From: Vulcanisaeta distributa DSM 14429
Lineage (GTDB): Archaea; Thermoproteota; Thermoprotei; Thermoproteales; Thermocladiaceae
Assembly: GCF_000148385.1 (NCBI RefSeq)
Contig: NC_014537.1
Location: 2,100,001 to 2,132,000, forward strand
Reading direction: 5' to 3'
Length of the DNA stretch: 32,000 nucleotides
The notes beneath the pieces are model-generated. The model was not told the DNA's origin. It worked only from the letters and a program-made list of their open reading frames with translations, and made no database searches. The position numbers were made by a program, and so were the translations under genes. Every line of letters begins with the position of its first letter. The first letter of the stretch is position 1. Of this stretch, positions 2,540-17,124 are shown in pieces.

Positions 2540-2944
2540 TTATGAAGTACCTCGACAATTACCTCGAATTATTACATTCAAGTCCTTAATCTCAATACCT
2601 AGCTTACTCACCTCCCTCTCTATGGCAGATACGTCAATGTCTACATCCATTATTTGACCTGTATCTTCACAGATGACATTAATATGAGGATCCTTACGCA
2701 TTTCATACCAGGTCTTACCATCAGCCTCAAAGGACCTCAAGATACCCAGCCTAACGAGGGTGTTTAATGTATTGTATACGGTGGATATACTTATGTTGGG
2801 TTCAATCTTCCTTAATTCGTTGAGTACTTGATCCATCGTGAAGTGACCGCCATTCATTAAGAGTTGCAGTATTGCCACCCTCTGTGGCGTAACCTTGAGT
2901 CCCTTACTCCTTAACAGCTCGATTATTTCGTTGATATTACCCAT
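2540..2944 (-). CDS. Fur-family transcriptional regulator (Fur/PerR-like) with degenerate metal sites
   Basis: 134 aa. Typical Fur N-terminal winged helix: LKVTPQRVAILQLL...HFTMDQVLNEL....ISISTVYNTLNTLVRLGIL. The C-terminal dimerisation domain reads PHINVICEDTGQIMDV where Fur proteins normally have HHHxxCxxCG. Confidence 0.8.
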   Translation of the reverse strand: MGNINEIIELLRSKGLKVTPQRVAILQLLMNGGHFTMDQVLNELRKIEPNISISTVYNTLNTLVRLGILRSFEADGKTWYEMRKDPHINVICEDTGQIMDVDIDVSAIEREVSKLGIEIKDLNVIIRGNCRGTS

Positions 2945-3055
2945 TTCGAATTAGAACCTTCTTCTGGTAATAAAATCCCTACGCCTAATCTGCATTACTT
3001 AAGACATACACTATATAATCTATATGTAGGTAAGCAATATTAACTCGTTATAATC

Positions 3056-4267
3056 TTGAAAACTCCGACCAAAATGGGTGAGGATAGGGAGGCATACATA
3101 GTCTATTTCAAGAGAACAGCATTCTCAAGGGTTAAGAGGGAGGATCCGAAGTTTGACGTATTCTACGACATAAGTGGGCCAACCCTTATCTCAAAATTGT
3201 TTGTTAAGGCCGTGCAGGACCTTGGCATAAAGCCTGAACAGATTGACCATGTGATAGTCGGCAATGCATTACAGGGCGGTGATAATTGGAGCATGGGCGG
3301 TAGGATACCGGTATTCCTCGCAAAGTTCCCAGTCACCATACCTGCCATGGCAGTTGACATGCAGTGCGCCTCTTCATTCGACGCGATCGGTATTGGTACG
3401 ATGGAAATATGGACTGGACAGGCCGACATAGTCTTTGCCGGTGGTTATGAACACATGTCCAGAGTCCCCATGTACAATAACCCGTATATAGTCCCACACC
3501 TTGAGCTAGCCACGAATCCTGAGTACGCAATGTACGACATGGCCACTGGTTATGTGATGGGGTTAACCGCCGAGAAATTGGCGGCTCTCAAGAAGATAAG
3601 TAGAGAGGAGATGGATAGGTGGTCGTATAGGAGCCACATGCTCGCTACCAAGGCCTACGAGGAGGGCTACTTCAAGGACGAAATACTCCCGATAGAGGTT
3701 GTTAAGGATGGGCAAAAGATTGTGGTTGATAGGGACCTTAGCGTTAGGCCGAATACATCGTTAGAGGCCCTGGCTAAGTTACCGCCTGCTTTTAAACCTG
3801 GTGGCGTAATAACAGCTGGTAATTCAGCGCCTCTTAACTCAGGTGCATCGTTAGTGGTCTTAATGTCAGGTAAGATGGTTAAGGAGCTTGGTCTAAAGCC
3901 GCTGGCTAGGGTTGTGTCGCTGGGTTGGGCTGCTGTTGATCCATCGATAATGGGTGAGGGCCCAGTACCGGCATCAAGGAGGGCGTTGGCAAAGGCTGGG
4001 CTTAGGGTTGAGGATATAGATTTATGGGAGATAAATGAAGCTTTTGCTGTGGTTACGTTAAATGCCATTAAGGAATTGGGAATTGACGAGAATAGAGTGA
4101 ACATTAAGGGAGGAGCCATAGCGATTGGACACCCACTTGGCGCGACTGGGGCAAGGTTAGTTGGTACCCTGGCTAGGCAACTGCAATTAACCGGTAAGGA
4201 GTATGGACTTGCAACGGCATGTGTCGGCGGTGGGCAGGGCTACGCAATAATTATTCAAAGGGCTTGA
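3056..4267 (+). CDS. Acetyl-CoA C-acetyltransferase / 3-ketoacyl-CoA thiolase
   Basis: 403 aa. Contains the acyl-Cys region VDMQCASSFDA, plus NEAFA, GGAIAIGHPLGATGARL and the C-terminal CVGGGQG thiolase signatures. The track start is TTG at 3056; ATG at 3074 is an alternative. TATA-like ctatataatc lies near 3010-3020. Confidence 0.9.
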   Translation: MKTPTKMGEDREAYIVYFKRTAFSRVKREDPKFDVFYDISGPTLISKLFVKAVQDLGIKPEQIDHVIVGNALQGGDNWSMGGRIPVFLAKFPVTIPAMAVDMQCASSFDAIGIGTMEIWTGQADIVFAGGYEHMSRVPMYNNPYIVPHLELATNPEYAMYDMATGYVMGLTAEKLAALKKISREEMDRWSYRSHMLATKAYEEGYFKDEILPIEVVKDGQKIVVDRDLSVRPNTSLEALAKLPPAFKPGGVITAGNSAPLNSGASLVVLMSGKMVKELGLKPLARVVSLGWAAVDPSIMGEGPVPASRRALAKAGLRVEDIDLWEINEAFAVVTLNAIKELGIDENRVNIKGGAIAIGHPLGATGARLVGTLARQLQLTGKEYGLATACVGGGQGYAIIIQRA

Positions 4268-4332
4268 GTGGTTTACTTTCAATTTAAATTGAAATAAACT
4301 TAAAACTGCAACCTTGCATTGTAAAGTATTGT

Positions 4333-4767
4333 ATGTTTGAGATACCACTCAAACCAATGGGTAAGGAGGACATTAGGAAACTCGAAAGTGCATTACTTGT
4401 AATGTCTCTATTCTCATCAGAGACGCTGGAGGCACTTAAGAATCCCCATGAAAGACTTACCTGGGTTGATAGTCTTTACACTGCGGCTGCCGCATTTGCT
4501 AGGGATAAGGCTGGCATGCCCATTTCGCAAATAGCTGATGAGATTGGCGTGACTGAAGCCACAATACGTAAACACCTCAGGGGTGAGACGAAGGCTGGTC
4601 AACTAGTGTTAAAGGCGTACGAGAGACTTTCTAAGGAGGGCTTCAAAATCGAGTTACCAAGCGAATTAGCTGGAACCATATCCGCCGAGGACGTGGGCAA
4701 ACTGAAGGAGAAGATAGAGAGGGTTAAGAAGCTACTTAATGATGCATTGAGGGAGTTAAGTTCGTAG
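4333..4767 (+). CDS. Small helix-turn-helix protein, putative transcriptional regulator
   Basis: 144 aa. Central HTH-like segment MPISQIADEIGVTEATIRKHLRGET and a coiled-coil-like C-terminus. No specific family recognised. Confidence 0.5.
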   Translation: MFEIPLKPMGKEDIRKLESALLVMSLFSSETLEALKNPHERLTWVDSLYTAAAAFARDKAGMPISQIADEIGVTEATIRKHLRGETKAGQLVLKAYERLSKEGFKIELPSELAGTISAEDVGKLKEKIERVKKLLNDALRELSS

Positions 4768-4818
4768 TAATGAATCGCGTATTAAAATATTTAATTTATA
4801 ATGATTGATTGAGAATCC

Positions 4819-5685
4819 CTACCCTTCTTCTTCCTCTTCCTCGGTTTCACGCGTTATGGCCTTAACTTCTTTGGTTGCTTTCTCCGTTTCCTCAATAGCC
4901 TTCCTCATTTCATCAACTTCCTCCTTGGGTAACGGCTGTATTGATGCTGAGGTTGCTGTTAACTTTAGGTACTTGTCCCAGTAAATAACGACACCCTCAT
5001 CGGTTATATCCATTGGATGCCTAACCATCGAGATCTTAGTATCCCTCATCTTCCAAACAATTATTGACCTATACAACTTACCATCTATCTCATCAAGGTC
5101 CACTCTAATGATACCATCAACGGCATGCTCAACACCAGGCCCACCAAAGCCACGCTCACCAACTGAGACTTGGCTTATGAAGAGCGCCGTCGTGCCTAGG
5201 CCCGCGATCACCCTCTTGAGGAGCATCACCGTTGACCTGGCAATGGAAGGCTTCGTTAGGTATAACGTACTCACGGAATCTATGGTCACCCTCTTGGCGC
5301 CCGTATCCTTAATTGCCTGTCTAAGTACGTCAACGAGCTCGTGGACATTATCCACATCCTTAACGACGTACTTCTCCCTCTGAGATGCGGAGCCAATGCC
5401 CGCTGTGAACGCATCAACAATCGCGAACTTACCCTCCTTCTCAAACTTTGTTATATCCCAATTAAAGTGCCTAAAACTCCTCCTAACGGCGACGGGGTGC
5501 TCCTCAAGCGCCACAAAGACTCCGGGCTCATCCCTCACAAGCCCATTATACAGGAATTGCTTACCCAATATGGACTTACCAGTACCGGGCCCGCCAGAGA
5601 TGAGGACGACACTCCTCTCTGGGATGCCTCCATACAGTATCTCGTCAAGACCCGGTACGTAGGTCCTAACCCTAGGAATGGGCAT
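4819..5685 (-). CDS. KaiC/RadA-like RecA-superfamily ATPase (single KaiC domain) with a poly-Glu C-terminal tail
   Basis: 288 aa. [39 protein letters not shown] is the canonical archaeal KaiC-like N-terminus with Walker A. Walker B-like KRVTIDSVS. The C-terminus ends [11 protein letters not shown]. Confidence 0.85.
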
Positions 5686-5918
5686 ATGGTATTGAATTAT
5701 TCTTGGTGTTGTTAAACCTTTCCCTGGTTATTGATTTAGATTGTGGAGTTATTAATAAAAGTATTTTATATTTGATCATTTTAATTTTATTACTTATATT
5801 TATAATTCATTAACACTATTAATTTAATCATGAGATTAATAGAAATAGAATACGTTTGTCCTTATTAATGGACATGTTTAACAGCGGTAATTCCTCAGGA
5901 TGTTTAAAAATAGGTGGG

Positions 5919-6431
5919 TTAATGTTTAAGGAGTTTGGGAAATAATCTTGATCTTCTTTTTACCTTATCTTTACTTGATTGAATTATTTGTTCAAGATCC
6001 TCTGGTTTTATATTTATGCCATTTTTTGATAAAATGTTTATGAGGAGATTGATATCCGTGTTTCCCGTGTTTAAATAACTCCTTATTAGCGTGTCGTCAT
6101 TATTCACCAGATCATACTGGCTGAGCAGGATGAGCGTTGCCTCAAGGCTAAGGCCTTTCCTTGTTACCTCATTCAGTAGGTCGTCGATGGACCTTGACGT
6201 GAAGTATGTGAGGAGCTTGATGAGGACGGTGGTGCAGAATCCCCTGAGTGGTCCGGCGCATTCGGAACTCCACTTCTTTATTAGCCTTTGTTCTTCCTTG
6301 CCCAGTGTAATGACCTTTACATTAATGGGCTTTACCCTGAGCTTTGTCTTCCTTACCTCATCAATCTTAACCCTCCTATCTATCTTCCATATGTCCTTAG
6401 GTTCCTGCTTATCTACGTTCATTCGATCCAC
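5919..6431 (-). CDS. Hypothetical protein (167-170 aa), last gene of the pilus-like block
   Basis: Lys/Arg-rich N-terminus and helical C-terminal part. The track start is GTG at 6431. ATG at 6422 is preceded by GGTGGA (SD-like) and overlaps the upstream ORF by 14 nt, suggesting translational coupling. No family recognised. Confidence 0.5.
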   Translation of the reverse strand: MDRMNVDKQEPKDIWKIDRRVKIDEVRKTKLRVKPINVKVITLGKEEQRLIKKWSSECAGPLRGFCTTVLIKLLTYFTSRSIDDLLNEVTRKGLSLEATLILLSQYDLVNNDDTLIRSYLNTGNTDINLLINILSKNGINIKPEDLEQIIQSSKDKVKRRSRLFPKLLKH

Positions 6432-6750
6432 CGCAACTTATGATGGATACCCACGTCTTAAAGGCGTTCGCGTACTCACTACCCACGCGTTCCTCAAGTA
6501 GTTTCACCCAATCATCAACCGTGACCTGCCTAAACACGTCATCGGAACCAAACATCTCCTGGGCCAGTATTGCCCTCTCAATCTTCGTTAACTTCTTAAC
6601 CTCCTCAAGCAATGTCCTAAGTACGTTCTGCCCGGTGGCCGGTGGTGCCTGTTGTTGAGGCTGTGCCGTGGTTTGCTCGCGGGTGCTTACCTGACCCTCA
6701 GCCTTTTCCCTCCTCACATTGCTTAGGAATAGGTCCACAGGATTGCTCAT
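6409..6750 (-). CDS. Hypothetical small protein (113 aa) with a Gln/Pro-rich disordered N-terminus and a helical C-terminal domain
   Basis: ATG at 6750. A TATA-like ttttaagtaaata element lies in the 35-nt spacer after the ParA-like gene. Residues about 15-42 are low complexity (TREQTTAQPQQQAPPATGQ). No family recognised. Confidence 0.5.
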   Translation of the reverse strand: MSNPVDLFLSNVRREKAEGQVSTREQTTAQPQQQAPPATGQNVLRTLLEEVKKLTKIERAILAQEMFGSDDVFRQVTVDDWVKLLEERVGSEYANAFKTWVSIISCGGSNERR

Positions 6751-6785
6751 TAACTCAATAGTAACTATTTACTTAAAAGGACTGG

Positions 6786-7595
6786 TTAGTAGGTCCCCGT
6801 GAGTATTGCCTTTATTTGCTTGGTCAGCGTATCCACATACTTATCAAAGGGGATCCTGAAATCCGCCAGTGAACCCTTTGGTGAATACATGATAAGGGGT
6901 TTCATTATCGATGTTAGATAGTGGACTATGGGGCTCATGGGTAGTACGAAGAACTCGCCATTATGTATGAAGCTCCTTACCTTGGACTCCATAACGTCAA
7001 GGCCGGGTATCGCCTTATTTAAAACTATATTGACTATCTTCTTAAAGCCCTTCAACAGCATTGGTTGTATGAAGTATTTATCTATTTCCTGGGCTACCGA
7101 GTCGCTGTATGTGGCATAATCAAGCACTATGTTAATTATTGATGACTGAAGCAGCGAGTTCACGGTTATTGCTTGATCCATGTGCGCCGGTAAGTCAATA
7201 ATGACGGCCTGAGCCACGGTCTTCATCACCGAATGATTTATGAGGTTACTGAACCTAACCTGCGTGGTCTCCGGGTCTACGTTGAGTTGCCACGTCCTGA
7301 GCATGCCTGGTGGTACTACGTAAACACTCGGCATTACTGGGGACCTGGAAATCACTTGGTCCACATCATCCACGGTACCGTTTATGTAATCCGCGGCGCC
7401 ATGCTTATCCGGGTTTACACCCAATATCCTGCTCGACGTCGCGGTGGAATCCATCCCAAGGTCTATGAGGAGTACGTTGCTCTTTAGGGCCTGTGATAAG
7501 GCTATGGCAGTATTACTGGCCAAGGTGCTCTTCCCAGTCCCACCCTTTAGTCCGCTGAAGAATGATACGACGACAAACCTGGGTTTAAGCATCAT
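6786..7595 (-). CDS. ParA/MinD-family (SIMIBI) ATPase, coupled to the pilus-type secretion ATPase
   Basis: 269 aa. Deviant Walker A with signature lysine: FFSGLKGGTGKSTLASNTAIAL. Walker B-like AVIIDLPAH. Its start ATG lies 3 nt after the stop of the upstream ATPase gene (TGAttaATGATG). Confidence 0.8.
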   Translation of the reverse strand: MMLKPRFVVVSFFSGLKGGTGKSTLASNTAIALSQALKSNVLLIDLGMDSTATSSRILGVNPDKHGAADYINGTVDDVDQVISRSPVMPSVYVVPPGMLRTWQLNVDPETTQVRFSNLINHSVMKTVAQAVIIDLPAHMDQAITVNSLLQSSIINIVLDYATYSDSVAQEIDKYFIQPMLLKGFKKIVNIVLNKAIPGLDVMESKVRSFIHNGEFFVLPMSPIVHYLTSIMKPLIMYSPKGSLADFRIPFDKYVDTLTKQIKAILTGTY

Positions 7596-7598
7596 TAA

Positions 7599-9176
7599 TC
7601 ATTTCAGCTCATCCTTAAAAGGATTTGTAAATTCCTCATCAAGCTTAAGCACCTCCTCTGGGATCTCCTGGTTATTCTGTGAATTTTGACCTGAGTTACT
7701 TGTGCCTGCGGTGTTATTCTCCACATTCTTAATGAACTTCTCGGGATCCTTGTAAAAGGCATATAGTAAGCCAGCCAGTTGTTCGTAATTAAGCCCGGAA
7801 TTCACAGCCCTCATTAAGAAGGCCCTCCTATACTGTAACTGCTTTATTACGTACTCATCACCGTAAGTCTTACCCAGTATCTTCATATACTCGTCTGAGT
7901 TGAATATGGACCTTACGAACCTGTGCGTGACCAGTTCATACACATTGGTCACCTGGTTATACCTGGACTGCTTCATTATGCCCAACTCTACGACGACGGC
8001 TATGTTCAGGAGATCCCTGGCCTCTAGACCAAGGTTCTCAAGCCTAACCTCTGCGGCCTTGAAATTATCTGCGTGGAATGTGGTTAGGGCTCCATGACCA
8101 AGGGTTATGGCCTCAGCCAATGCCTTGAACTCTTCGTAGCTTCTAGCCTCGTTTAAAACAATTATATCCACACCACTCCTGAGGGCTTGTTTTATTAACT
8201 CGGCCTTATTGATATTCCTGATTCCGTGAGCGTAGGAAACCCTCTCGAACATGGGTTTTACGACCTTGTGGTACGGTAGGAAGAGCTCGGCTACGTCCAT
8301 TATTATCGCCATAGGCCTATTCACGAGCATGTACGCAATGGCATTCTGCAGGCTGGTCTTTCCAGCGCCCATGGGACCTATGATCAGGACTGGGACCTTA
8401 TGCTCAGCCAGCAACCAAAGTCGGGCAGCATCATCAATGCTTATCATGCCCCTACTCACCATTTCGGGGAGTGTCCATGGCCTCCTGGGCAAAACCCTAA
8501 TGCTTATGGAACCCATGCTGACCGGCTCAGCCTCTATGGAGATCCTAACGCCAAACTCCGAGTCAACTATGGATGCCACCGGGTTGTAGGCGGTAATTGG
8601 CGTCCCCGCCCTACGACTGGCCCTCCTCATTATGTAATTCACGAAACCATTGAAGTCAAACCTTATGGTCTTAACTACCTTCTTACCCTTTCTGACGTCG
8701 TAGGGCTCCCAACCAATTATAACCCTGACGAGACCAAGCTCTGAGTGATCGACGTATATCCCACCAAGGCCGAACTTACTCCCCTCCTTGTTTATGTAGA
8801 TGTCGGTCACGTCATCCATCATCAGGACTGGCGTTAGGGGCCCATAATGGTTATTCCACCTCAGGAATAGGTTTGTGGCGAGCATGACATTATCCTGGCT
8901 TGCCTTAACACTCACCTCCTTAAGTCCCTTGGTAATGGCCTTACTGGACTCCATCCCCGACCCAATCCACTCAACTATTTTCTCGATTGGCAATGCTATT
9001 GCCCAGTCTGGTACATTGTCGATAACGTAGGCTATGTAATCGTGAGTACCGTACTGGGGATCAACAACCCTATACACATCTATATCCGTCTTGATTCCAT
9101 CAACCTCAATGACGTAGTGCTTAACTAATTCCTCACCAATAACCTTAGGCCTAGACACATGCATGGTCATCACCAC
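7599..9176 (-). CDS. Type IV pilus/archaellum-type secretion ATPase (FlaI/TadA/VirB11 = T2SS-E family)
   Basis: 525 aa. Walker A LIIGPMGAGKTSL, Asp/Walker B box DIIVLNEAR, His box LGHGALTTFHADN. The track start is GTG at 9176. ATG at 9170 overlaps the stop of the upstream membrane-protein gene (TGATG) and is an equally good start. Confidence 0.85.
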   Translation of the reverse strand: MVMTMHVSRPKVIGEELVKHYVIEVDGIKTDIDVYRVVDPQYGTHDYIAYVIDNVPDWAIALPIEKIVEWIGSGMESSKAITKGLKEVSVKASQDNVMLATNLFLRWNNHYGPLTPVLMMDDVTDIYINKEGSKFGLGGIYVDHSELGLVRVIIGWEPYDVRKGKKVVKTIRFDFNGFVNYIMRRASRRAGTPITAYNPVASIVDSEFGVRISIEAEPVSMGSISIRVLPRRPWTLPEMVSRGMISIDDAARLWLLAEHKVPVLIIGPMGAGKTSLQNAIAYMLVNRPMAIIMDVAELFLPYHKVVKPMFERVSYAHGIRNINKAELIKQALRSGVDIIVLNEARSYEEFKALAEAITLGHGALTTFHADNFKAAEVRLENLGLEARDLLNIAVVVELGIMKQSRYNQVTNVYELVTHRFVRSIFNSDEYMKILGKTYGDEYVIKQLQYRRAFLMRAVNSGLNYEQLAGLLYAFYKDPEKFIKNVENNTAGTSNSGQNSQNNQEIPEEVLKLDEEFTNPFKDELK

Positions 9177-10243
9177 GTCAGCGGTATTAACGGTATGAGG
9201 AATAGGGGTATTAGAACCACGCCAAGGCCTATGGAGTGCATGGCCTTACCCGTGAGTATGGCCGTGGACACGGCCAGCGGTATTAAGGCAGCCGATATGC
9301 CACTCACGTTAAACGTTATGGGCATCTGAACATTGGCTATGACAGCACCCGCATTAAGTGATGAAAGGATGTATGCCGTGAATAGCGTGAAGACATAACC
9401 AATGGTTATAAACGGCCCATAAACTAACCCAGTCGTCACCGACCTCTTAACGTAGTCAACGAATGCGCTGACAACCATCACAATCCTCTCCACGAACTCA
9501 CGAACACCAACCGAGTACGCGTAATCCCATAGAGGCATCAACTCCCTCTCAATTATTGTTATAGGTCTCAGTGGTTCTGGGCTTGGTGAGTTGAGCAGTT
9601 CGCCAAAGGATTTCAGCACCCTCGAACCCAGGCCAGCGTAATCCCTAATGAACCTGAGGAATTGTGGTATGTAGAAAACCGCGAAGCCTATTCCAAACCC
9701 AAACAATACCAGCAGGGCTATCTTCTCAGCACCCGCATGAAGTAGGTAACCCAATGCGTAACCTATCGCACCAGCGACGATTCCCGCGATACTGGGCTTT
9801 CCGTAGTCATATCTCGTGATCTCGACCTGGAAGTAGTGTATCACCGGCACCATGACAATGCCGACGAGGCCGACGATGGGCGGCACACCCAGTATTATTA
9901 GGAATGATAAGACGCCAATCATTATGCTTAGTACCGTTATCGCAACCAGGGCCTGGGTTTGAAAATCAATTTGCTGATTAAGTAATGCCGTGTACTTATT
10001 CATCAGGGCTAGGAAGGTTATGCCTGGGTCCGAGCCCGCTGAAAAATACGTACTCGCCAATGCAACCAACTCACGCCTGTAATCCCTGGGGAGCATCCAT
10101 GGGTTACCGAGGGAATTAAGTATAGTGGCTACTCTATTCCACGCCCTACTTAGCTTGGCGGACTCATTAACTGCGAACTCAACTCCCTCAATGGGCACCC
10201 TAATTATGAATACTAAGTCCGAAACAATTTCTCTAAGGTTCAT
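9170..10243 (-). CDS. Polytopic membrane platform protein, FlaJ/TadC/PilC-like (T2SS-F-like architecture)
   Basis: 357 aa with a two-fold architecture. A soluble helical segment (about 1-95) is followed by a TM cluster, then a second soluble segment (about 195-265) and a second TM cluster. Translationally coupled to the secretion ATPase. Assignment rests on architecture and context, not a verified HMM hit. Confidence 0.6.
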   Translation of the reverse strand: MNLREIVSDLVFIIRVPIEGVEFAVNESAKLSRAWNRVATILNSLGNPWMLPRDYRRELVALASTYFSAGSDPGITFLALMNKYTALLNQQIDFQTQALVAITVLSIMIGVLSFLIILGVPPIVGLVGIVMVPVIHYFQVEITRYDYGKPSIAGIVAGAIGYALGYLLHAGAEKIALLVLFGFGIGFAVFYIPQFLRFIRDYAGLGSRVLKSFGELLNSPSPEPLRPITIIERELMPLWDYAYSVGVREFVERIVMVVSAFVDYVKRSVTTGLVYGPFITIGYVFTLFTAYILSSLNAGAVIANVQMPITFNVSGISAALIPLAVSTAILTGKAMHSIGLGVVLIPLFLIPLIPLTW

Positions 10244-10326
10244 CGTAGTGATGGCATAATTACTTTAAAAGGGATGATGCATAAAAATGATGATTTTTAT
10301 TTGTTTTTAACAACGCCGTTGATTAC

Positions 10327-10755
10327 TCACGAGACGGTTATTGGCTGAGTACCCGCGTTTGTGGTTACATCAACCGTCGTAACGCTTGAGCAGCTGGAGC
10401 CTGAGTAAATGAGCGACAGTGTGTCGCCGGGTTTAAGGCTCCATGGTGGGGATGTCGTGGATAGTGGCTGGCCATTAAGCATTACCGAGCTTAATGTACA
10501 GCCGGACGTTACAGTACTGCTTCCTGAGTATAACGTAACATTGCTTATGGTTATCGTACCAACGCCCGCGGCCTTTAAGTTAATGATTAATTGACCACCC
10601 GCAGTTGTTGCCTGCCCAGTCAGTGAGTTGGCTATGCTTAGGGACTTCGTTGCGCCATTGTACACTATGTATAGTATCACAACCGCCATTACTATACTTA
10701 CCACAGTTACCACGACCCATAGCAGATTGAACTCACCTCTAGTCGACCTACCCAT
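10327..10755 (-). CDS. Type IV pilin-like protein with class III (prepilin) signal peptide; likely major pilin
   Basis: 142 aa. N-terminus MGRSTRG|EFNLLWVVVTVVSIVMAVVILYIVY has a short basic leader, Gly at -1 and a roughly 25-residue hydrophobic helix. The C-terminal part is Ser/Thr/Gly-rich and beta-like. Has its own TATA-like promoter and is followed by a T-stretch. Confidence 0.7.
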   Translation of the reverse strand: MGRSTRGEFNLLWVVVTVVSIVMAVVILYIVYNGATKSLSIANSLTGQATTAGGQLIINLKAAGVGTITISNVTLYSGSSTVTSGCTLSSVMLNGQPLSTTSPPWSLKPGDTLSLIYSGSSCSSVTTVDVTTNAGTQPITVS

Positions 10756-10778
10756 ATTGGTCAGAATTAAGTACTGAA

Positions 10779-10790
10779 TTTATTTTTAAG
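10779..10790 (-). promoter_or_regulatory. TATA-box-like element (cttaaaaataaa on the minus strand) for the pilin gene
   Basis: Lies 23 nt upstream of the pilin ATG (10755). This spacing fits a leaderless or very short-leader archaeal mRNA. Confidence 0.5.
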
Positions 10791-10912
10791 GGGAATTAAA
10801 CGTAAAAAAAATCCATGGAAACACAGGGCATATTAACCCTACTTAGTTATTACCCCAGTCCTCACTTTGGACTTAGTTTACGTAAACTCACGGAGACTAA
10901 GTACTTCACGGC

Positions 10913-11896
10913 TTAATGCTGGGTATTGGCCTCATTATTAATGCCCGTACGCCAAACCCACCAACCAAAGGTTTCCCTGTAAGTACCTGGTTCTGCGCTT
11001 AACTCGCCATAGTACACGTAGTCGTGTATCGAGGCTACGTATAGGCTAAACGGCACCATGACACCGAGTGCGGCCTGCGGATTGCTTATGTAGATAATGT
11101 CCAGCTTACAGGGCACTATGTATATTATTGATGAGGAATTAACGAGTATGTTAGTGAGGGCTAAGTAGCCGTAGTAGGTCCTGTTGAATGCCAACGTTAT
11201 GTTGAATGATAATGCATCAAGCGTTACATAGTCATTACTCATATTCACTACCTTGACTGTGGGAATGGGGCCATTTCCAGCGACATCCCCCATGATAACG
11301 ACCGTGAAGCCTGGGAATGGGTAGTTCATGGTCTCATTACTAACCGCCACATAGCTCACCCCATAAATTGGGAAGAAACTTGCCGACCCATTTATCGGTA
11401 AATACATGGGTAGGTAAACAGCGTGCATAAGTTCTGTCCCATACGGCAGTGAGAAATTGTAACAGCCCGCACCACACGTGAGTAGGTTCATCTCCCGTAA
11501 TAACCAATCGGGTGCAACCCACGTGGTTATGAACCACACAGTCCCATTCGGCATCACCAAGGCACGGCCCCAACACCACCCAGTCCCCATTAGATAACCC
11601 GTGTAATTCCACCAAGTCTCGCTGGAGTTCACATTGCCCATGGGTATGAAGACCGTCCTGTTTACGTAAACAAGAATTGATTGATTCACGTACCTGGTTA
11701 TGTGCGTCACATTACTCGAAGTACCCACGGCCTTATATACCTCATTAACCTCAACAAGGCCCAGGGCCTTGGCAATGGGCTGTAACGGCCTAAGGCGCGG
11801 GCTTATCAATATTATTACCAACAACGCAATCAGCACTATGATGAGCACCTTGGCCGCCGTATCGACGTACCGCCACCAATAGATTAACCTACTCAT
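10913..11896 (-). CDS. Membrane-anchored extracellular protein, heavily N-glycosylation-sequon-rich, ORFan
   Basis: 327 aa. N-terminal signal-anchor AKVLIIVLIALLVIILISP. About 13 N-x-S/T sequons by my count. Trp/Tyr/Asn-rich beta-type composition. No family recognised. Confidence 0.55.
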   Translation of the reverse strand: MSRLIYWWRYVDTAAKVLIIVLIALLVIILISPRLRPLQPIAKALGLVEVNEVYKAVGTSSNVTHITRYVNQSILVYVNRTVFIPMGNVNSSETWWNYTGYLMGTGWCWGRALVMPNGTVWFITTWVAPDWLLREMNLLTCGAGCYNFSLPYGTELMHAVYLPMYLPINGSASFFPIYGVSYVAVSNETMNYPFPGFTVVIMGDVAGNGPIPTVKVVNMSNDYVTLDALSFNITLAFNRTYYGYLALTNILVNSSSIIYIVPCKLDIIYISNPQAALGVMVPFSLYVASIHDYVYYGELSAEPGTYRETFGWWVWRTGINNEANTQH

Positions 11897-11956
11897 TTAC
11901 ATCACCCCATGAGGACCTTAATAAGGTGTTATCACGTAGAACTACGGCCCAGCTCA

Positions 11957-12751
11957 CTAGGGGGGTGATGGTGGAAGGCATATTGGTGGAAGAGGTGGTG
12001 AGTTGCCGAATAATACTGGAAATGTGTAGCAAACCTCGTTTACCTGCGTGCAATTAACATTAAATTTTATGGTGCTGCCTATATTGAATGTGTTACTAAC
12101 GTAGTATGGTTTGATCCAGCATGTGTAGTTAACTGGGTCTCCAGCCAATGAGGCTCTCATGTTTATTTGTATTGGCGTGTACGGTGGGTTTATGTAAAAC
12201 ACCGATGAGCTGGATCCACTAACTATGTAGTATTGAAAGAGGGGTCCCGTAACTATAAACCAATTACCAAGTCTTGTGAAATTTAGGTAATTCCATGTTA
12301 TCACCCAGGTTGCGTTATACGGGTCGTTAACTACAACGGTGATTGCATTACCCACGCCTGTGTAGTCATCAATCCAACCATTTACGTTCACCGTGGTGCA
12401 TGTACTTGGGTCAATGGCTGAGCACACGAATACCGCAACTGGTAATTGATTGGTCTGGTAAAACCACCACTGGTTTTGATTAAGTACGTTGCTGTTCACA
12501 TTGATTACTCCACCATTAGCTAGTAATATCTTCTTGACTATGAATGGTTCATGGCCCGTGTTCACGACACCTAGGTAATAACCACCATTGTAGGGTACAA
12601 CGTCGGCCACGGGCCATAGGTAATTCTCAAGCACCTGCCTATGTACATAGACGTAATAGCCATAGAGCCCACCACCGAGTACCATCGATATGATGACCAT
12701 GGCCAGTATGAATCCTATGGTTCCCGTCAGTATTTCATCAAAGGTCATCAT
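11957..12751 (-). CDS. Membrane-anchored extracellular protein, possibly a minor-pilin-like subunit, ORFan
   Basis: 264 aa. N-terminus MMTFDEILTG|TIGFILAMVIISMVLGG resembles a class III signal (Gly then hydrophobic helix) but lacks the usual basic residue at -2. Four N-x-S/T sequons. Pro-rich C-terminus SPPLPPICLPPSPP. Confidence 0.5.
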   Translation of the reverse strand: MMTFDEILTGTIGFILAMVIISMVLGGGLYGYYVYVHRQVLENYLWPVADVVPYNGGYYLGVVNTGHEPFIVKKILLANGGVINVNSNVLNQNQWWFYQTNQLPVAVFVCSAIDPSTCTTVNVNGWIDDYTGVGNAITVVVNDPYNATWVITWNYLNFTRLGNWFIVTGPLFQYYIVSGSSSSVFYINPPYTPIQINMRASLAGDPVNYTCWIKPYYVSNTFNIGSTIKFNVNCTQVNEVCYTFPVLFGNSPPLPPICLPPSPP

Positions 12752-12780
12752 TGATTAATATTGCATTATTTAAAAGCGGG

Positions 12781-13065
12781 TCAGGGCGTGGTTGTTTGAT
12801 TAATCGGTATTGATGGGCACGAGACGTACGTTATGCCGTTATTGCTATAGTAGAGGCAGTACCCATCGGTTTGTGGGGAATTCACGGCACTGCTTGAATT
12901 TATTGGGCTTGGTGGTTTATACGCGCCCATTGATCCTGCCCAGCGCACTTTGTCCATGCTTGATTTCAGAAGTGGCATGCTTATTGCAATTAACCCAATT
13001 ATTGCTATTACTGTTAATGCCATTATCACCGCAATTAGTAGTGATGATATTCCCCTTGTTGACAT
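12781..13065 (-). CDS. Small pilin-like protein with class III signal peptide
   Basis: 94 aa. N-terminus MSTRG|ISSLLIAVIMALTVIAIIGLIAI shares the STRG pre-cleavage motif with the 142-aa pilin. A TATA-like cttataaag element sits about 22 nt upstream of the ATG. Confidence 0.6.
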   Translation of the reverse strand: MSTRGISSLLIAVIMALTVIAIIGLIAISMPLLKSSMDKVRWAGSMGAYKPPSPINSSSAVNSPQTDGYCLYYSNNGITYVSCPSIPINQTTTP

Positions 13066-13090
13066 TGATTAATTATTAGTTATTCTCTTT

Positions 13091-13155
13091 ATAAGGGTTT
13101 TCAAGTAGAATTGAAAACAAAAAATTATAGGCTATATAGTGAAAAAATTTATAGA
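13091..13155. promoter_or_regulatory. Divergent promoter region with two TATA-like boxes
   Basis: The 115-bp AT-rich spacer holds ctttataagg (13091-13100; on the minus strand it sits about 22-27 nt upstream of the ATG at 13065). It also holds tttataga (13148-13155; on the plus strand 25 nt upstream of the ATG at 13181). Confidence 0.45.
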
Positions 13156-13180
13156 ATAACAGTAACACTTTTAATGTATA

Positions 13181-13882
13181 ATGAGGTTCGTGAACGACAG
13201 AGGCGAGGTATTAGATGAGGATGGTATGGTAATGGGTATAATCTATGAAGGCACTGAGTATTACCCAGCCCTACCGAGGTATCATAATAACGTTATCGCG
13301 AAAAGCGGTGTCAGCGAGACTTATAGGCGTATCATGCTAATTAAGAGGGCGTTCATGCCCGTGGAGGGCGTTAGGGATATCGAAGACCTAGTTAAGAATT
13401 GGGTCAACGAGTTCAAGCTGGTCCTTGGTAGGGCTGGAATACCATATAGTGAGGAGCAAGTGGTGGCGCTGGCCACGTCATTAAGGGGCAGGTGGCCTGT
13501 GAAGAGGCCAACGCCCTATGAAGTGCTTGAGTGCGTTCTAGACCCTGGCTGCATTAAGTATAGTCCAGGCCTTAGGAGGCTCATTGAGGATAAGTTCAAT
13601 GAGGTGTTTGGTTCATTAATTAGTGTGCACATAAACAGGGTACTCAGGGAGTGGGGCCTTGAGGGTGCCATTAATGTTAACGAGGTACTCAATAAGTACG
13701 CCGATATAATCAGAATAACAAAGTTTAGGAAAAGGCACTTCTATAGGAGAACACTTATTGAGCTTGCAATAACCGCGGTACTCCTTGATAATTTAGATAG
13801 GAAGGACGTTGAGGACATACTCAGGGGGTTGGGTAAGGAGGAGCTCATTAAAATAATTGATGCATTATATGGGTCACAGTGA
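13181..13882 (+). CDS. Hypothetical protein (233 aa), ORFan
   Basis: ATG preceded by a TATA-like box at -25. Soluble, charged and helical composition. No motif recognised. Confidence 0.5.
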   Translation: MRFVNDRGEVLDEDGMVMGIIYEGTEYYPALPRYHNNVIAKSGVSETYRRIMLIKRAFMPVEGVRDIEDLVKNWVNEFKLVLGRAGIPYSEEQVVALATSLRGRWPVKRPTPYEVLECVLDPGCIKYSPGLRRLIEDKFNEVFGSLISVHINRVLREWGLEGAINVNEVLNKYADIIRITKFRKRHFYRRTLIELAITAVLLDNLDRKDVEDILRGLGKEELIKIIDALYGSQ

Positions 13883-14039
13883 TAGCGGGTCTTCCTGAAT
13901 TATTTCTAGTGCTACGATGACAACAAGGCGCTGATGTCATCGTGCGCACTCTGGGTATTGTGGTTCTACACGTTATTAATATTTAGAAGATTTATCAATA
14001 ATTACCTAATTAACTTCTCACATTATTAAAAAATAATTC

Positions 14040-15464
14040 ATGGGCATCATTAAGACTAGCCTTATAAAAGCGTTAATAGACAAAATAAAGAGATTAATGG
14101 AGGTCAAGGATGTAATAATAAGGCTTGGCATTGTGAGGGATAGGTATGAAATGAGGCTTAGGGATTTATTGAGAAATTTCACTGTGCCTAATTGGCATCC
14201 ATGTCCATGCCCGCACGGTGAGACGGAAAGGGCTATTGTTGAGGGTCACATTGAGGAGCTGGCGAGGGTTGGTGGCAAGCTTCTTCAGCCCATGATCGTG
14301 CTTCATCTGGATAGTGCCAATTACCTAATTGCCGATGTATGCATATACAACGTCCTATCAACACTGCCGGAAAGCATGAATTACGTGCTTGATAGGGTAC
14401 GAACTGAGGTTTGGGACCTTGGAAAATTCAGTAGTGAGGAGAGATACGTGGCGATGGCCATGGCCACCACGATATGCATAGCCTACAAGAATAGGGTCTT
14501 GAAGGAAGTTAAGCTACACTTTGCCAGAGAGCTGATCAGGAATTACGTACTTAATGTTGCGGAGATGGACTGGAGAGGGGCCGAGGCCATGATAGAGGGG
14601 TTAAGCAGGTATGAGGGTGTCATGGGTATAGCTAGGGAACTCGCCAATGTGCTCGGCATGAGCGAGAGGAATGCCCATAGGTACATAATCGCGGTGTTAA
14701 ACGAGGACTTCATAAATGAGTTAAGGAGCCTTGTGAGGAATAGGGTGTTGCAGGTTAAACCTGGCGATAACAATGTAGATAGAGCTGATGTGGCGGAGAA
14801 CGCTGTACCAACCAAGGCATCAAAGAATCAATTAGACATATCCAAGAGAATATACATAACACAGATAGCCAAGCGCATTAATGTATCGACGAGTGAGTTA
14901 GAGGACTTGAGTAAACTAACGCAGCGTAATTTAGCAACCCTCACTAGGAGAGTCAGGGAGTTAAGCCCTGAGGCAGGTAAAAGCCTCGTGAGTAGGATAA
15001 TTAAGGCGATCAGGGATAATAATATGGAGGAGGCCGTGGCATTAATAGAGAAGACACCCAGTGACTACGGTGATAATCCCAGTCCTGTGATTGCGATTGA
15101 TGATTTTAGCGATGTTCATGTAGAAAGTGATAGGCATAGGGTGTATAGGTTAAGGGTTGGCGACATTGAATGCCCAGAGGAGTTATGTCCTGTGTATAGG
15201 AGGGTAATTAGGGCATTAAAGAATAGTGATTTAGAGTTACTTTATGAGGCCATGAGAGCACTCACGAGGCAGATGAATAGGGATGAGTTATTATGGGCAA
15301 TAGAAAAGAGGCTGGATAACGAGGACTTCAGAAAACTAATGAACATGATAATAAATGATACCAACGAGTCAATGAGCAGGGAATTACTAAGCCTGCTGGA
15401 AACCATAATTAAAGGGGATCAGGATAATGCATGTAAATTAATACATGAAATAATTAAATCATAA
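14040..15464 (+). CDS. Hypothetical protein (474 aa), helical, with Cys/His motifs and internal repeats, ORFan
   Basis: Contains a HPCPCPHGETE motif near residue 53 and ECPEELCP near residue 378. The C-terminal third holds three similar helical segments: RIIKAIRDNNMEEAVALIEK, RVIRALKNSDLELLYEAMRAL and ETIIKGDQDNACKLIHEIIK. No family recognised. Confidence 0.5.
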   Translation: MGIIKTSLIKALIDKIKRLMEVKDVIIRLGIVRDRYEMRLRDLLRNFTVPNWHPCPCPHGETERAIVEGHIEELARVGGKLLQPMIVLHLDSANYLIADVCIYNVLSTLPESMNYVLDRVRTEVWDLGKFSSEERYVAMAMATTICIAYKNRVLKEVKLHFARELIRNYVLNVAEMDWRGAEAMIEGLSRYEGVMGIARELANVLGMSERNAHRYIIAVLNEDFINELRSLVRNRVLQVKPGDNNVDRADVAENAVPTKASKNQLDISKRIYITQIAKRINVSTSELEDLSKLTQRNLATLTRRVRELSPEAGKSLVSRIIKAIRDNNMEEAVALIEKTPSDYGDNPSPVIAIDDFSDVHVESDRHRVYRLRVGDIECPEELCPVYRRVIRALKNSDLELLYEAMRALTRQMNRDELLWAIEKRLDNEDFRKLMNMIINDTNESMSRELLSLLETIIKGDQDNACKLIHEIIKS

Positions 15465-15690
15465 TAATCCCTGTCTCAACATTTATCATAGGCGGGTATC
15501 CCATCCTTATGCTAGATGGCTTCATAATATTAAAGTTAGTATAGTATCACTAATATTGCGGTATTTTATTTAAAATTAATGAATTTCATTTAATAAAATT
15601 TTATAAAAATGGAAAAATTTTTATCAATTTACTACAATAATGTCAAGGCCAGCGCACGATAACTATCAACCCAAAACAATAATGAAAAAC

Positions 15691-15697
15691 CTTTAAA
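15691..15697 (+). promoter_or_regulatory. TATA-like box (ctttaaa) for the tRNA gene
   Basis: Ends 22 nt upstream of tRNA nucleotide 1 (15720) and is preceded by a purine-rich BRE-like gaaaaac. Confidence 0.45.
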
Positions 15698-15719
15698 CTC
15701 TTACAATCATAACTTACCC

Positions 15720-15814
15720 GCGGCCGTAGTCTAGCCTGGTCTAGGATGGCGGCCTTCCGAGCAATAAACGTGGAAAGCCGCAGAACCCGGGTTCGAATCC
15801 CGGCGGCCGCACCA
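15720..15814 (+). tRNA. tRNA-Gly (anticodon UCC) with a ~16-nt intron in the anticodon loop and a genomically encoded CCA
   Basis: Hand-folded structure:
- Acceptor GCGGCCG / CGGCCGC, A73, then CCA at 15812-15814.
- D arm GTCT..GGAT.
- Anticodon stem GCGGC (15749-53) / GCCGC (15777-81).
- Loop CTTCCG with TCC at 15756-58.
- Insert at about 15760-15775 containing GGAA, complementary to the anticodon region (BHB-like).
- T arm CCGGG-TTCGAAT-CCCGG. Confidence 0.85.
15760..15775 (+). other. tRNA intron (canonical 37/38 region)
   Basis: 23 nt lie between the two halves of the anticodon stem where 7 are expected. The exact splice junctions were not resolved by eye and could shift by 1 nt. Confidence 0.7.
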
Positions 15815-15831
15815 TCGAAATCGTTACGTGA

Positions 15832-15843
15832 TTGTTTTGTTTT
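15832..15843 (+). terminator. Oligo-T terminator (ttgttttgtttt) downstream of the tRNA
   Basis: Two T4 runs about 20 nt after the tRNA 3' end. Archaeal RNA polymerase terminates at oligo-T tracts. Confidence 0.5.
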
Positions 15844-15942
15844 GACCCGTGGGTCTTAGGCCATCATTTTCTCTCCTTCTCTTCTTAATTCAGTAGAACA
15901 GTTGAATAATTATTTATAATTCTTCGTTAATGAGACTTAAAT

Positions 15943-17124
15943 GTGCCCATTAGGGTTAGGTTACCTCAGGAGAATAGGGAGGTTATATTGGACGTAGACT
16001 CAATAACTGTTGGTGAGCTTTTAAGTAAGTTAAAGCTAAGTGAGTCTGAGGCCACGGTTATACTGAACGGTTTCCCCATTAGGAATACTGAGACGGTCAT
16101 AAATCTTAATGACAGAGTTGAGGTGATTAAGCACCTGCCCAGGGGCAGGTGTGGTATATGCGGTAGGGAGGCTTACGTTAGGATACCCTACGCGAAGTTA
16201 ACCCTATGTAAGGAGCATTTTATGGAGTTTATAGTTAAGAGGGTTCGAAGGACTATTGAGGAGTACAAACTTATAAGGAGGGGTGACTTAGTCCTTGTGG
16301 CTGTTTCGGGAGGTAAGGATAGTTCAACGATGCTTCATGTTCTTTCAACCCTCAGAGATTCCCTAAAATTCGACATAGTCGCATACCACATAGACCAGGG
16401 TATACCAGGCTACTCGGACAAGGCTAGGTCAGCTGTTGAGGAATTAGCTAGGAGACTTAACGTACCTTTAATTATATCCACATTCAAGGAAATGCTCGGT
16501 GTAGACCAACCAACATTAATTAAAGGAATGAAGTCTAGGAGACCACCATGCTCCGTATGCGGTATTATCAGGAGGTATTCCTACAATGCATTGGCAATGG
16601 AACTCAACGCATCCTCAATAGCCACGGGTCACCATGCCGATGATATCGCTTCATACGCGTTAAAGGCAGTACTAACCCACGACTACCAATCATTAACTAA
16701 ACTACTGCCTAAGACTGAACCATTCGAGGGAGCCGTAGCCCATATAAGGCCCCTATACGAGATTTACGAGAAGGAAACCCTTCTCTACGCATTGGCCTCG
16801 GAGATCCCATTCACAGCATGCCCATGCCCCTTTAGGCCGAGGAACACCCTAGATGATCATATTAAGGAGTTTTTAAATAACCTGGAGACAAGGCATCCAG
16901 GAATTAAGCTGAGCTTCTTGAAGGGCCTCGTTAGGGACGTCAAGATCCTTGGGAAGGTTGTTGAGGAAAACCCTGAGATGCATACATGTAAGGTATGCGG
17001 ATTAGCATCAAGCGGTGATGTATGCTCCTTCTGCAGGTTCACCCAGCGTGAATTGGGAAGTGCCATGGGACCCCATGTCAGGGACCTCCTCCGGGTCAAG
17101 GTTTCCGGACTTAAGTTGAGGTAA
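15943..17124 (+). CDS. TtuA/Ncs6-type tRNA 2-thiolation PP-loop ATPase with an N-terminal ThiS/MoaD-like beta-grasp domain
   Basis: 393 aa with a GTG start; tatttataat lies about 25 nt upstream.
- Residues 1-65 (IRVRLP..REVILDVDSITVGELLSKL...ILNGFPI....INLNDRVEVIKHL) look like ThiS/MoaD.
- Zn finger CGICG-x17-CKEH.
- PP-loop VAVSGGKDSS.
- Fe-S cysteines PPCSVCG and CPCP.
- C-terminal Zn finger CKVCG-x8-CSFC. Confidence 0.8.
   Translation: MPIRVRLPQENREVILDVDSITVGELLSKLKLSESEATVILNGFPIRNTETVINLNDRVEVIKHLPRGRCGICGREAYVRIPYAKLTLCKEHFMEFIVKRVRRTIEEYKLIRRGDLVLVAVSGGKDSSTMLHVLSTLRDSLKFDIVAYHIDQGIPGYSDKARSAVEELARRLNVPLIISTFKEMLGVDQPTLIKGMKSRRPPCSVCGIIRRYSYNALAMELNASSIATGHHADDIASYALKAVLTHDYQSLTKLLPKTEPFEGAVAHIRPLYEIYEKETLLYALASEIPFTACPCPFRPRNTLDDHIKEFLNNLETRHPGIKLSFLKGLVRDVKILGKVVEENPEMHTCKVCGLASSGDVCSFCRFTQRELGSAMGPHVRDLLRVKVSGLKLR

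Follow-up and report, generated by a model that had tools for sequence, protein, structure and literature searches.

Subclade 4G and the Vulcanisaeta distributa locus

The type IV pilus (T4P) loci of archaea were surveyed by Makarova, Koonin & Albers (2016, Front Microbiol 7:667; PMC4858521), who reported seven secretion ATPases in Vulcanisaeta distributa and described subclade 4G, a Thermoproteales-specific group of T4P-like systems that is highly complex and fast-evolving and in which the ATPases of Vulcanisaeta and Caldivirga are explicitly included. The published 4G complement comprises a diverged ATPase, a diverged TadC, a FleN/MinD ATPase, predicted pilins bearing cysteine residues, large secreted proteins, and small cytoplasmic helical proteins (PMC4858521). 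Filament structures obtained later from Thermoproteales concern other systems, namely the T4P of P. arsenaticum, the flagellar-like pilus of P. calidifontis, bundling pili, and conjugation-like Ted pili. Here we analysed a window of 32,000 nucleotides (nt) from the V. distributa DSM 14429 chromosome (NC_014537.1, positions 2,100,001 to 2,132,000) that carries a nine-gene cluster at positions 5919-13065 of the window, and we consider this cluster likely to specify a machine of the 4G kind that assembles a filament resembling type IV pili. The assignment is based on the family and catalytic boxes of the ATPase, the modelled pilin fold of one subunit (pil142), the [K/R]-G leaders, the TGATG coupling of two genes, the presence of a MinD-type ATPase, the synteny of the cluster, the published ATPase tree, and a distant locus of similar content (L014).

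Nine co-directional open reading frames (ORFs) on the minus strand were read from the translations, with the lengths and coordinates that a first-pass annotation of the same sequence had given, and eight of the nine products were identified by protein matching as ADN51623 to ADN51630. The genes are as follows.

12781..13065, minus strand: pil94, small prepilin-like protein, putative minor pilin (ADN51630, 94 aa)
11957..12751, minus strand: s264, membrane-anchored surface protein, putative minor pilin or tip adhesin (ADN51629, 264 aa)
10913..11896, minus strand: s327, N-terminally anchored accessory surface component (ADN51628, 327 aa)
10327..10755, minus strand: pil142, type IV pilin, best candidate for the major subunit (ADN51627, 142 aa)
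9170..10243, minus strand: 357-aa polytopic membrane protein, presumed platform of the TadC/FlaJ type (ADN51626)
7599..9176, minus strand: assembly ATPase of the T2SSE/FlaI family (ADN51625 / WP_148678337, 521-525 aa by the start chosen)
6786..7595, minus strand: MinD/ParA-type ATPase (ADN51624, 269-aa ORF, annotated as 268 aa)
6409..6750, minus strand: g113, small charged Gln-rich cytoplasmic protein (ADN51623, 113 aa)
5919..6431, minus strand: g170, conserved cytoplasmic accessory protein (170-aa maximal ORF)

The stop codon of the gene for the 357-aa protein overlaps the ATG of the ATPase gene in the sequence TGATG, and from that ATG the product is the 523-aa ADN51625. The overlap had been recorded by the first-pass annotation together with a length of 525 aa for the ATPase, which holds only for the maximal ORF with a GTG start. 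The MinD/ParA gene starts 3 nt past the ATPase stop codon, also as recorded, and every motif listed in that annotation (STRG in two products, GPMGAGKTS, the IIVLNEAR box, GHGALTTFHA, and KGGTGKST) was present in the translations. For comparison we used the orthologous loci of three other Vulcanisaeta genomes (L001-L003), the paralogous locus (L004), a third, metagenomic clade (L005), and the distant locus L014.

The position of the locus in the published tree was traced through GenInfo identifiers (GI). In Table S4 of the census, GI 307596358 is a 268-aa MinD-type ATPase of V. distributa assigned to arCOG00589 (PMC4858521), and the offset between the ParA-like protein of the locus and the paralogous ATPase is 2067 in ADN, WP, and GI numbering alike. 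Because of this identical offset and the length of the 268-aa MinD entry, we infer that the GI entries represent the locus and its paralogue, with GI 307596359 being the locus ATPase and GI 307594291 the ATPase of the paralogue. The published topology is (Cmaq 159041458,(Vdis 307596359,(Vmout 325968523,Vdis 307594291))), and this Vulcanisaeta/Caldivirga group is joined by another pair from Vulcanisaeta and by a Methanomethylovorans sequence on a long branch; the sister of the whole is the long Pyrobaculum/Thermoproteus branch, with a support of 0.899 (PMC4858521). Our homologue search returned the same relatives, with the paralogue at 62% identity and Caldivirga-like proteins at 35-43%.

The locus complement matches that of 4G, in whose published set both PilA-family and Cys-bearing predicted pilins occur. 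The ATPase lies in the 4G branch, a FleN/MinD ATPase is encoded in the locus, and a TadC-like protein of the arCOG10359 type and Cys-bearing pilins accompany them; the per-gene assignments (arCOG10359, arCOG13767, and arCOG13919) are presumptive. Several differences were noted. The detailed published queries used the paralogous locus (GI 307594292 and 307594294) and not this copy, the MinD protein here belongs to arCOG00589 whereas that of the Pyrobaculum branch belongs to arCOG05608, the membrane proteins arCOG10497 and arCOG10500 published for Vulcanisaeta/Caldivirga loci are not in the nine-gene cluster, and the third clade in metagenomes (L005) is later than the census. The locus has thus been known, as a computational prediction, since 2016. 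The first-pass annotation had presented the gene complement as unusual, yet it is not an unnoticed oddity because the census described the same kind of complement (PMC4858521).

The assembly ATPase and the predicted filament subunits

The ATPase, which is 100% identical to WP_148678337/ADN51625, contains the Walker A sequence GPMGAGKTS and the boxes DIIVLNEAR and GHGALTTFHA, and it matched Pfam T2SSE (PF00437) at 7e-19, above the gathering score. It is a T2SSE protein with the full set of catalytic boxes that marks type IV filament ATPases, and in an alignment of its relatives, bacterial CpaF included, the Walker A, Asp box, Walker B Glu/Arg, and His box were invariant. The NCBIfam matches were to the TadA family (8e-26), FlaI (8e-22), BasE (5e-21), and VirB11 (4e-15), the protein being less like VirB11 and TrbB; all of the BasE, FlaI, and TadA scores were far under the family cut-offs (78 bits for the FlaI equivalog, with a cut-off of 550) and denote superfamily membership only. 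The corresponding matches in the PDB were afGspE2 (2OAP, 9e-19), FlaI (3e-15), CpaF (8e-15), and VirB11 (4e-9), followed by PilB. The membership in the FlaI/TadA family that had been proposed from the motifs was therefore substantiated, with the protein nearer by score to GspE2, FlaI, and CpaF than to VirB11.

These scores bear on the idea that the locus specifies a DNA-transfer or conjugation apparatus, or a mobile-element module, of a Ted-like kind, in which a VirB11-like ATPase would act with a VirB6/TedA-like channel of seven transmembrane (TM) helices and a VirC1-like ParA. The best NCBIfam match of the ATPase is indeed named 'TadA family conjugal transfer-associated ATPase', Ted loci likewise combine a MinD/ParA ATPase with a membrane protein of 7 TM helices (PMC9905601), the ORFan-rich contig of L014 ends in a tyrosine integrase gene, and L005 lies in an ORFan-rich region. 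However, VirB11 is a poorer match to the ATPase than GspE2, FlaI, and CpaF are, and no VirB4/TedB, VirB2/TedC, HerA, Rad50, relaxase, or integrase was found in the window; the combination of a VirB4-type ATPase, a VirB6-like channel, and a VirB2-like pilin that distinguishes DNA transfer derived from type IV secretion systems did not occur. TedC is a substrate of signal peptidase I, but the subunits encoded here combine class III leaders with a modelled T4P pilin fold. Moreover, the chromosomal frame running from a thiolase to a ribonucleotide reductase gene is conserved around the locus in four Vulcanisaeta genomes, the sole plasmid relatives are bacterial CpaF proteins at ~28% identity, and there were neither close phage relatives nor PHROG matches. 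We regard a conjugation apparatus as extremely improbable. A mobile-element origin, which was considered for the nearby tRNA-Gly gene and the ORFan neighbours, was rejected for this locus in view of the conserved frame and the lack of PHROG matches and of close plasmid or phage relatives.

Two products had been proposed to start with STRG followed by a hydrophobic helix in the layout of class III prepilin signals, and this held for both of them. The N-terminus of pil94 is MSTRG↓ISSLL and that of pil142 is MGRSTRG↓EFNLLW (the arrow denotes the cleavage site), with STRG in each, and the [K/R]-G leader motif is common to every orthologue and paralogue of both pilins. For pil94, the cleavage site RG↓IS fits the PibD consensus (K/R)-(G/A)↓(L/I/F)-(S/T/A) quoted in PMC7347861, and the motif [KR]G↓[IQ][ST], the hydrophobic helix, and two cysteine residues (GYCL...SCPS) are kept in the orthologues and in two paralogue clades. 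The protein fits what is said of arCOG13767 ('pilin family, two conserved cysteines'), to which it presumably belongs; arCOG13767 gave an HHpred match to type IV pilin with a probability (Pr) of 93 (PMC4858521).

In pil142 the sequence RG↓EF is invariant across three clades. An AlphaFold2 (AF2) model calculated from the single sequence, with a predicted local distance difference test (pLDDT) score of 82, comprises a helix at residues 5-40 (36 residues) and a beta-sandwich, and the top three Foldseek matches in the PDB were archaeal T4P pilins, namely 8Q30 (Aap), 6NAV (S. islandicus), and 8FK7 (P. calidifontis), with probabilities of 0.99-1.00. The UniRef label of the protein is 'Archaeal Type IV pilin N-terminal domain-containing protein', and its composition is 30% Ser plus Thr with 6% charged residues. 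Together, pil94 and pil142 provide the class III signals and the pilin fold by which subunits of archaeal type IV filament systems are recognised. The modelled architecture of pil142, an N-terminal hydrophobic helix with an immunoglobulin-like beta-sandwich, the PibD-type leaders, and the Ser/Thr-rich, low-charge subunit are shared with Aap, the adhesive pilus of Sulfolobales, and the other solved archaeal T4P (8Q30, 6NAV, 6W8U, and 8FK7). Those systems differ from the present one in that pil142 has no sequence-level similarity to their pilins, Aap-specific genes are absent here, the ATPase belongs to a different clade, and the locus has a MinD ATPase and the cytoplasmic proteins g113 and g170 in addition. 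We regard pil142 as the probable major pilin.

Two larger surface proteins are encoded between the pilin genes. In s264, the first ~125 aa, including VCSAxxPSxC, are 55-60% identical among three paralogue clades and form the extracellular module best conserved across them, a hydrophobic helix followed by a domain with invariant Cys110 and Cys118. The C-terminal part varies in sequence and length among homologues (257-406 aa in total), and in the V. distributa protein it ends in the Pro-rich tail that had been noticed before, PPLPPICLPPSPP. Because a conserved N-terminal module is joined to a variable C-terminal part, the pattern is that expected of a minor pilin or tip protein with an exchangeable outer domain, and s264 is a putative protein of this type. 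A protein of the paralogous locus, GI 307594294 (arCOG10434), gave a weak HHpred match to Arch_flagellin (Pr 53; PMC4858521), and its identification as a homologue of s264 is taken from GI order only. In s327, whose anchor is an N-terminal helix, about 13 N-x-S/T sequons had been reported and exactly 13 were counted, a density of 4 per 100 aa compared to 0-1.5 elsewhere. The protein matched no family in Pfam, NCBIfam, or PHROG. It is present in the three orthologous loci and absent from the paralogue L004, other genes occupy its place in L005, and a full-length homologue occurs in the distant locus L014 (28% identity, E 3e-20). The earlier view of s264 and s327 as ORFans did not hold, both having homologues in related loci, and by this distribution s327 is an old but dispensable component.

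The surface proteins also invite a different view of the output, in which a non-filament or short-pseudopilus machine (piston-like, bindosome-like, or resembling a type II secretion system) would handle s264 and s327 as cargo or anchored end products and build no long pilus. Such a machine would be consistent with BasE scoring about like FlaI (5e-21 compared to 8e-22 in NCBIfam), with the placement of two large surface proteins, one having 13 glycosylation sequons, between the pilin genes, with a platform too divergent for a T2SSF assignment, and with the remark, made of subclade 4D, that the function of some T4P-like systems in Thermoproteales may have shifted (PMC4858521). It is opposed by the size, Ser/Thr richness, low charge, and modelled fold of pil142, which are those of major archaeal pilins; by the finding that neither the locus nor its surroundings encode solute-binding proteins that bear class III signals; and by the BasE, FlaI, and TadA scores, which lie far below the cut-offs and speak for the superfamily level only. 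We judge a pseudopilus or bindosome-like device to be unlikely.

Platform candidate, cytoplasmic proteins, and proposed assembly mechanism

The AF2 model of the 357-aa protein, calculated with 24 homologues (pLDDT 85), has two helical domains in the cytosol, with TM helices after each of them and ~7 in all. This topology is compatible with FlaJ/TadC, and the duplicated soluble-plus-TM architecture claimed for the protein was thereby reproduced at the level of the model; an internal sequence repeat was not, as the two halves aligned in register at RELxxLxxxxxSxG with an E value of 0.28, which is not significant. The gene adjoins the ATPase gene in the related loci that encode it, with one reverse gene between them in L005. 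The family is tiny, with 20 matches among 1.84 billion representatives in a full HMMER profile search. Homology to T2SSF (PF00482) was sought in nine ways, none of which gave a significant result. When its 16 most diverse relatives were scanned against Pfam, a single one matched T2SSF (1/16, E 0.022), and hhalign of the family against six T2SSF proteins, five of them bacterial (TadB/TadC/PilC-type) and one haloarchaeal (PilC3), gave a best E value of 0.019, collinear over 278 columns with a probability of 2%. Its identity to P0119, the TadC-like protein encoded by the paralogue, is 55%; by GI adjacency, P0119 is the arCOG10359 query GI 307594292, and the label 'TadC/FlaJ family' of arCOG10359 comes from a PSI-BLAST match at E=0.006 in iteration 2 (PMC4858521). 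The platform role of the 357-aa protein is accordingly presumed from its topology, the TGATG coupling, and its adjacency to the ATPase, and not from homology.

The partner ATPase had been described as ParA/MinD, and it was confirmed as an archaeal MinD-type protein. It matched CbiA (6e-10), AAA_31 (2e-8), and the archaeal minD subfamily (9e-10); its best PDB matches were the archaeal MinD structures 1HYQ, 1ION, and 1G3Q, and its deviant Walker A sequence is KGGTGKST. The gene directly follows the ATPase gene in the orthologues, in L004, and in L005 (L001-L005). Kinship with TadZ/CpaE was considered and found unsupported, with a Tad-locus ParA match of E 0.004 over 41 aa and archaeal MinD as the best match. 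Of the two small cytoplasmic proteins, g113 has no TM segment and 27% charged residues, has no family match in Pfam, NCBIfam, or PHROG, and is kept, at 79-84%, in the three orthologous loci only; a 124-aa gene judged by eye to be of similar composition lies just upstream of the TadC-like gene in L014. The g170 protein, likewise without a TM segment and with 32% charged residues, showed no significant family match in Pfam or NCBIfam, and its maximal ORF had no match in the protein collection. It is conserved in the orthologues, and a 39% identical homologue directly follows ParA in the third clade L005. The start of g170 may be GTG or the ATG at codon 4.

The order of these genes recalls the bacterial Tad/Flp pilus, in which a CpaF-like ATPase also adjoins a ParA/MinD-superfamily ATPase and one or more polytopic platform genes, and bacterial CpaF is the nearest ATPase relative outside the archaea. 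What is shared is only the ATPase and the generic ParA/MinD fold. No Flp (PF04964), TadE/F (PF07811), PF00482, RcpC, or secretin was found here, whereas PF04964, PF07811, PF00482, and RcpC were all detected in the bacterial comparison loci L010 and L011. There is one fused 357-aa platform candidate in place of the TadB plus TadC pair, and the ParA-like protein best matches archaeal MinD.

Several results weigh against a T4P-like assembly machine. The 357-aa protein matched no family in Pfam or NCBIfam, its profiles found no T2SSF protein in the PDB, the profile search reached no protein carrying PF00482, and Foldseek of the AF2 model against the PDB returned nothing with an E value below 0.3, so that T2SS-F similarity, whose absence the first-pass annotation had named as refuting its proposal, was significant in none of Pfam, NCBIfam, profile, hhalign, and Foldseek comparisons. 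Neither pil94 nor pil142 matched a pilin model in Pfam or NCBIfam, and Pfam scans of the paralogous pilins were also empty. The Foldseek matches of pil142 have E values of only 2e-3 to 6e-3 and TM-scores of ~0.33 from a single-sequence model, and the pil142-family sequence profile gave spurious PDB matches only and no solved pilin. The residue at +1 of pil142 is Glu, invariant in all three clades, where the PibD consensus has L/I/F, and the N-terminus of s264 (DEILTG↓TIGF) has G at -1 without K/R at -2. No prepilin peptidase gene occurs in the 32-kb window; most archaea whose genomes carry these ATPases do have such a peptidase, and Vulcanisaeta is not among the three named exceptions (PMC4858521). 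Lastly, in the literature searched we found no experimental study and no expression or filament data on any 4G system. The earlier description of a lineage-specific, functionally uncharacterised filament system was right in substance.

With these points considered, a 4G-type filament machine remains the reading that we favor, and the following mechanism is proposed. The probable major pilin pil142, with pil94 and probably s264 as minor or tip subunits, would be inserted into the membrane by way of their N-terminal hydrophobic helices, and a PibD-type prepilin peptidase, presumably encoded elsewhere in the genome, would trim the short basic leaders after the conserved Gly. A hexameric FlaI/CpaF-like ATPase would then pull the subunits from the membrane and polymerise them through the translationally coupled 357-aa platform. 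By analogy to FlhG/MinD and TadZ elsewhere, the MinD-type ATPase, together with g170 (and g113), may regulate or position assembly. The s327 protein would be a heavily N-glycosylated, membrane-anchored accessory or adhesive component of the surface, and the output would be adhesion or biofilm formation. The genes would be expressed as individually initiated, mostly leaderless transcripts from TATA-like boxes of their own.

Related loci, promoter-like boxes, and neighbouring genes

The whole cluster, together with two divergent genes (p233 and p474) and tRNA-Gly, is syntenic in three other Vulcanisaeta genomes. L002 and L003 are from the draft genomes of V. distributa JCM 11216 and Vulcanisaeta sp. 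JCM 16159. In these, tblastn recovered the genes for s264, s327, and the ATPase only as several pieces in different frames, which points to frameshifts arising from draft sequencing errors or pseudogenisation. The same-genome paralogue, whose ATPase (P0005) is 62% identical, has the order pilin98, s257, pilin146, TadC-like 357, ATPase, ParA and lacks s327. In the third clade, from hot-spring metagenomes, the ATPase is ~49% identical and the core genes occur with a g170 homologue. At L005 4213-6738 (and in L006), a 284-aa TFIIB-type zinc-ribbon protein (Zn_ribbon_RRN7, 2e-8) and a 507-aa ORF replace s327, and the 19 kb around the third-clade locus contain almost no Pfam-annotated genes; the census reported TFIIB homologues close to 4D, a different T4P-like subclade of Thermoproteales (PMC4858521).

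The distant locus L014 (GC content 52%) encodes an ATPase of 31% and a TadC-like protein of 24% identity, along with a pil142-like pilin, a ParA-like protein, further pilin-like genes, and the s327 homologue. It occupies positions 1-16121 of a 25-kb ORFan-rich metagenomic contig, the one that ends in a tyrosine integrase gene, and includes several extra small proteins in which 'TDA(L/I)'-type N-termini precede hydrophobic helices. In L014, a 4G-type system may be borne on an island or a mobile element. On account of the gene content shared by the orthologous, paralogous, and distant loci, the conserved core consists of pil94, the N-terminal module of s264, pil142, the TadC-like protein, the ATPase, MinD, and g170.

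The first-pass annotation had placed a TATA-like box upstream of almost every gene or group of genes, and counts agreed with this. Six of the nine start codons have the sequence TT[AT][AT]AA beginning 20-36 nt ahead of them, compared to 3.2% of random positions (binomial p ~9e-8), and s327 and g170 have near-matches. A longer form, CC(N)TTWWWAR, starts 27-37 nt upstream of six of the nine locus genes compared to 1 of ~22 other gene starts in the window, at the following positions.

13088..13097, minus strand: TATA-like box of pil94 (CCCTTATAAA)
11918-11926, minus strand: TATA-like box of s327
10783-10792, minus strand: TATA-like box of pil142
10264-10273, minus strand: TATA-like box of the TadC-like gene
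7614-7622, minus strand: TATA-like box of the ParA gene, within the ATPase coding sequence
6772-6780, minus strand: TATA-like box of g113

The boxes, that of ParA included, keep their position and distance in the three orthologous loci and two paralogous clades (L001-L005). The ParA box overlaps the codons of a conserved NPFK motif at the ATPase C-terminus. The near-specific and conserved CC(N)TTWWWAR sequence hints at a locus-specific promoter, a variant of the B recognition element, or co-regulation. Thermoproteales mRNAs are mostly leaderless. Given this and the fixed distance of the boxes from the ATG, the sequences suggest that each gene can be transcribed on its own, mostly as a leaderless mRNA.

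The neighbours of the locus are housekeeping genes usual for a hyperthermophile, encoding a major facilitator superfamily transporter, rubrerythrin, Fur, thiolase, tRNA-Gly, ribonucleotide reductase, reverse gyrase, RIO kinase, and pyruvate:ferredoxin oxidoreductase. A KaiC-family ATPase gene (4819-5685, minus strand; TIGR03877 thermo_KaiC_1, 441 bits) lies 233 bp downstream of the cluster, and a gene for a small helix-turn-helix (HTH) protein (4333-4767, plus strand) stands with it between the pilus locus and the thiolase gene. The KaiC gene was found in L001; it and the HTH gene are both missing at the corresponding position of L002 and L003.

Were the KaiC-family protein used like ArlH, the filament could serve motility, either archaellum-like or by twitching. 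Its gene is on the same strand as the cluster, and KaiC-like ATPases accompany a number of T4P loci in archaea. The locus for the flagellar-like pilus of P. calidifontis also has such a gene, and its own ATPase was placed at the base of the FlaI clade. However, the protein belongs to thermo_KaiC_1 and scores only 46.5 bits against ArlH, where the cut-off is 215, and of the three orthologous loci two lack both the KaiC gene and the HTH gene; an ArlH-like core part was rejected on these two counts. As the first-pass annotation had concluded for archaellum, Ups, and Aap accessory genes, none was recognised, with no match to ArlF/G/X/C/D/E among the nine genes in Pfam or NCBIfam, and no second, retraction-type ATPase was found. 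The likeness to the archaellum extends to the ATPase superfamily (FlaI at 8e-22 in NCBIfam and 3e-15 in the PDB), class III subunits, and a polytopic partner protein; the locus differs in having none of ArlF/G/X/C/D/E and in that the adjacent KaiC is not ArlH. A motility filament is very improbable.

Positions 15943-17124 encode a TtuA-like PP-loop 2-thiouridine synthetase with a fused N-terminal ubiquitin-like (ThiS/SAMP2/UBX-like) domain, which would be a sulfur-carrier-like domain fused to its own enzyme, and this gene is also missing at this position in L002 and L003. We conclude that the KaiC gene is a strain-variable insertion and that the KaiC, HTH, and TtuA-like genes are outside the system, because they are absent from two of the three orthologous loci. 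The two plus-strand genes at 13181-15464, of 233 aa (p233) and 474 aa (p474), are divergent from pil94 and have no Pfam or PHROG family; they are syntenic with the pilus cluster in all four Vulcanisaeta genomes, have no counterpart in the paralogous clade L005, and may be regulators specific to the locus. The tRNA-Gly(TCC) gene (15720-15814) is 95 nt long here, 93 nt in L001, and 79 nt in L002 and L003, and these differences in gene length suggest an intron that varies in presence or length among strains.

Beyond the 4G filament machine that we prefer, the same parts might form an apparatus functionally distinct from an adhesive pilus, with a platform diverged past T2SSF or replaced, dependence on MinD and g170, and a glycosylated multi-subunit filament whose tip module can be exchanged, by way of the variable s264 C-terminus and of the replacement of s327 or other genes from one paralogue to the next. 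We give this only an outside chance. If it is true, the three paralogous copies per lineage would represent specialisation for different surfaces or partners. In either case the analysis offers a cleaner parts list, with core and variable genes separated, per-gene promoters, and a TadC assignment stated as weak. The Thermoproteales have the most diverse set of type IV filament systems known in archaea. Characterisation of this locus would bear on the cooperation of a FlaI-like motor with an extremely diverged platform, on the part that a MinD-type ATPase plays in archaeal pilus assembly, and on the way in which a conserved pilin-like stem carries variable surface modules.

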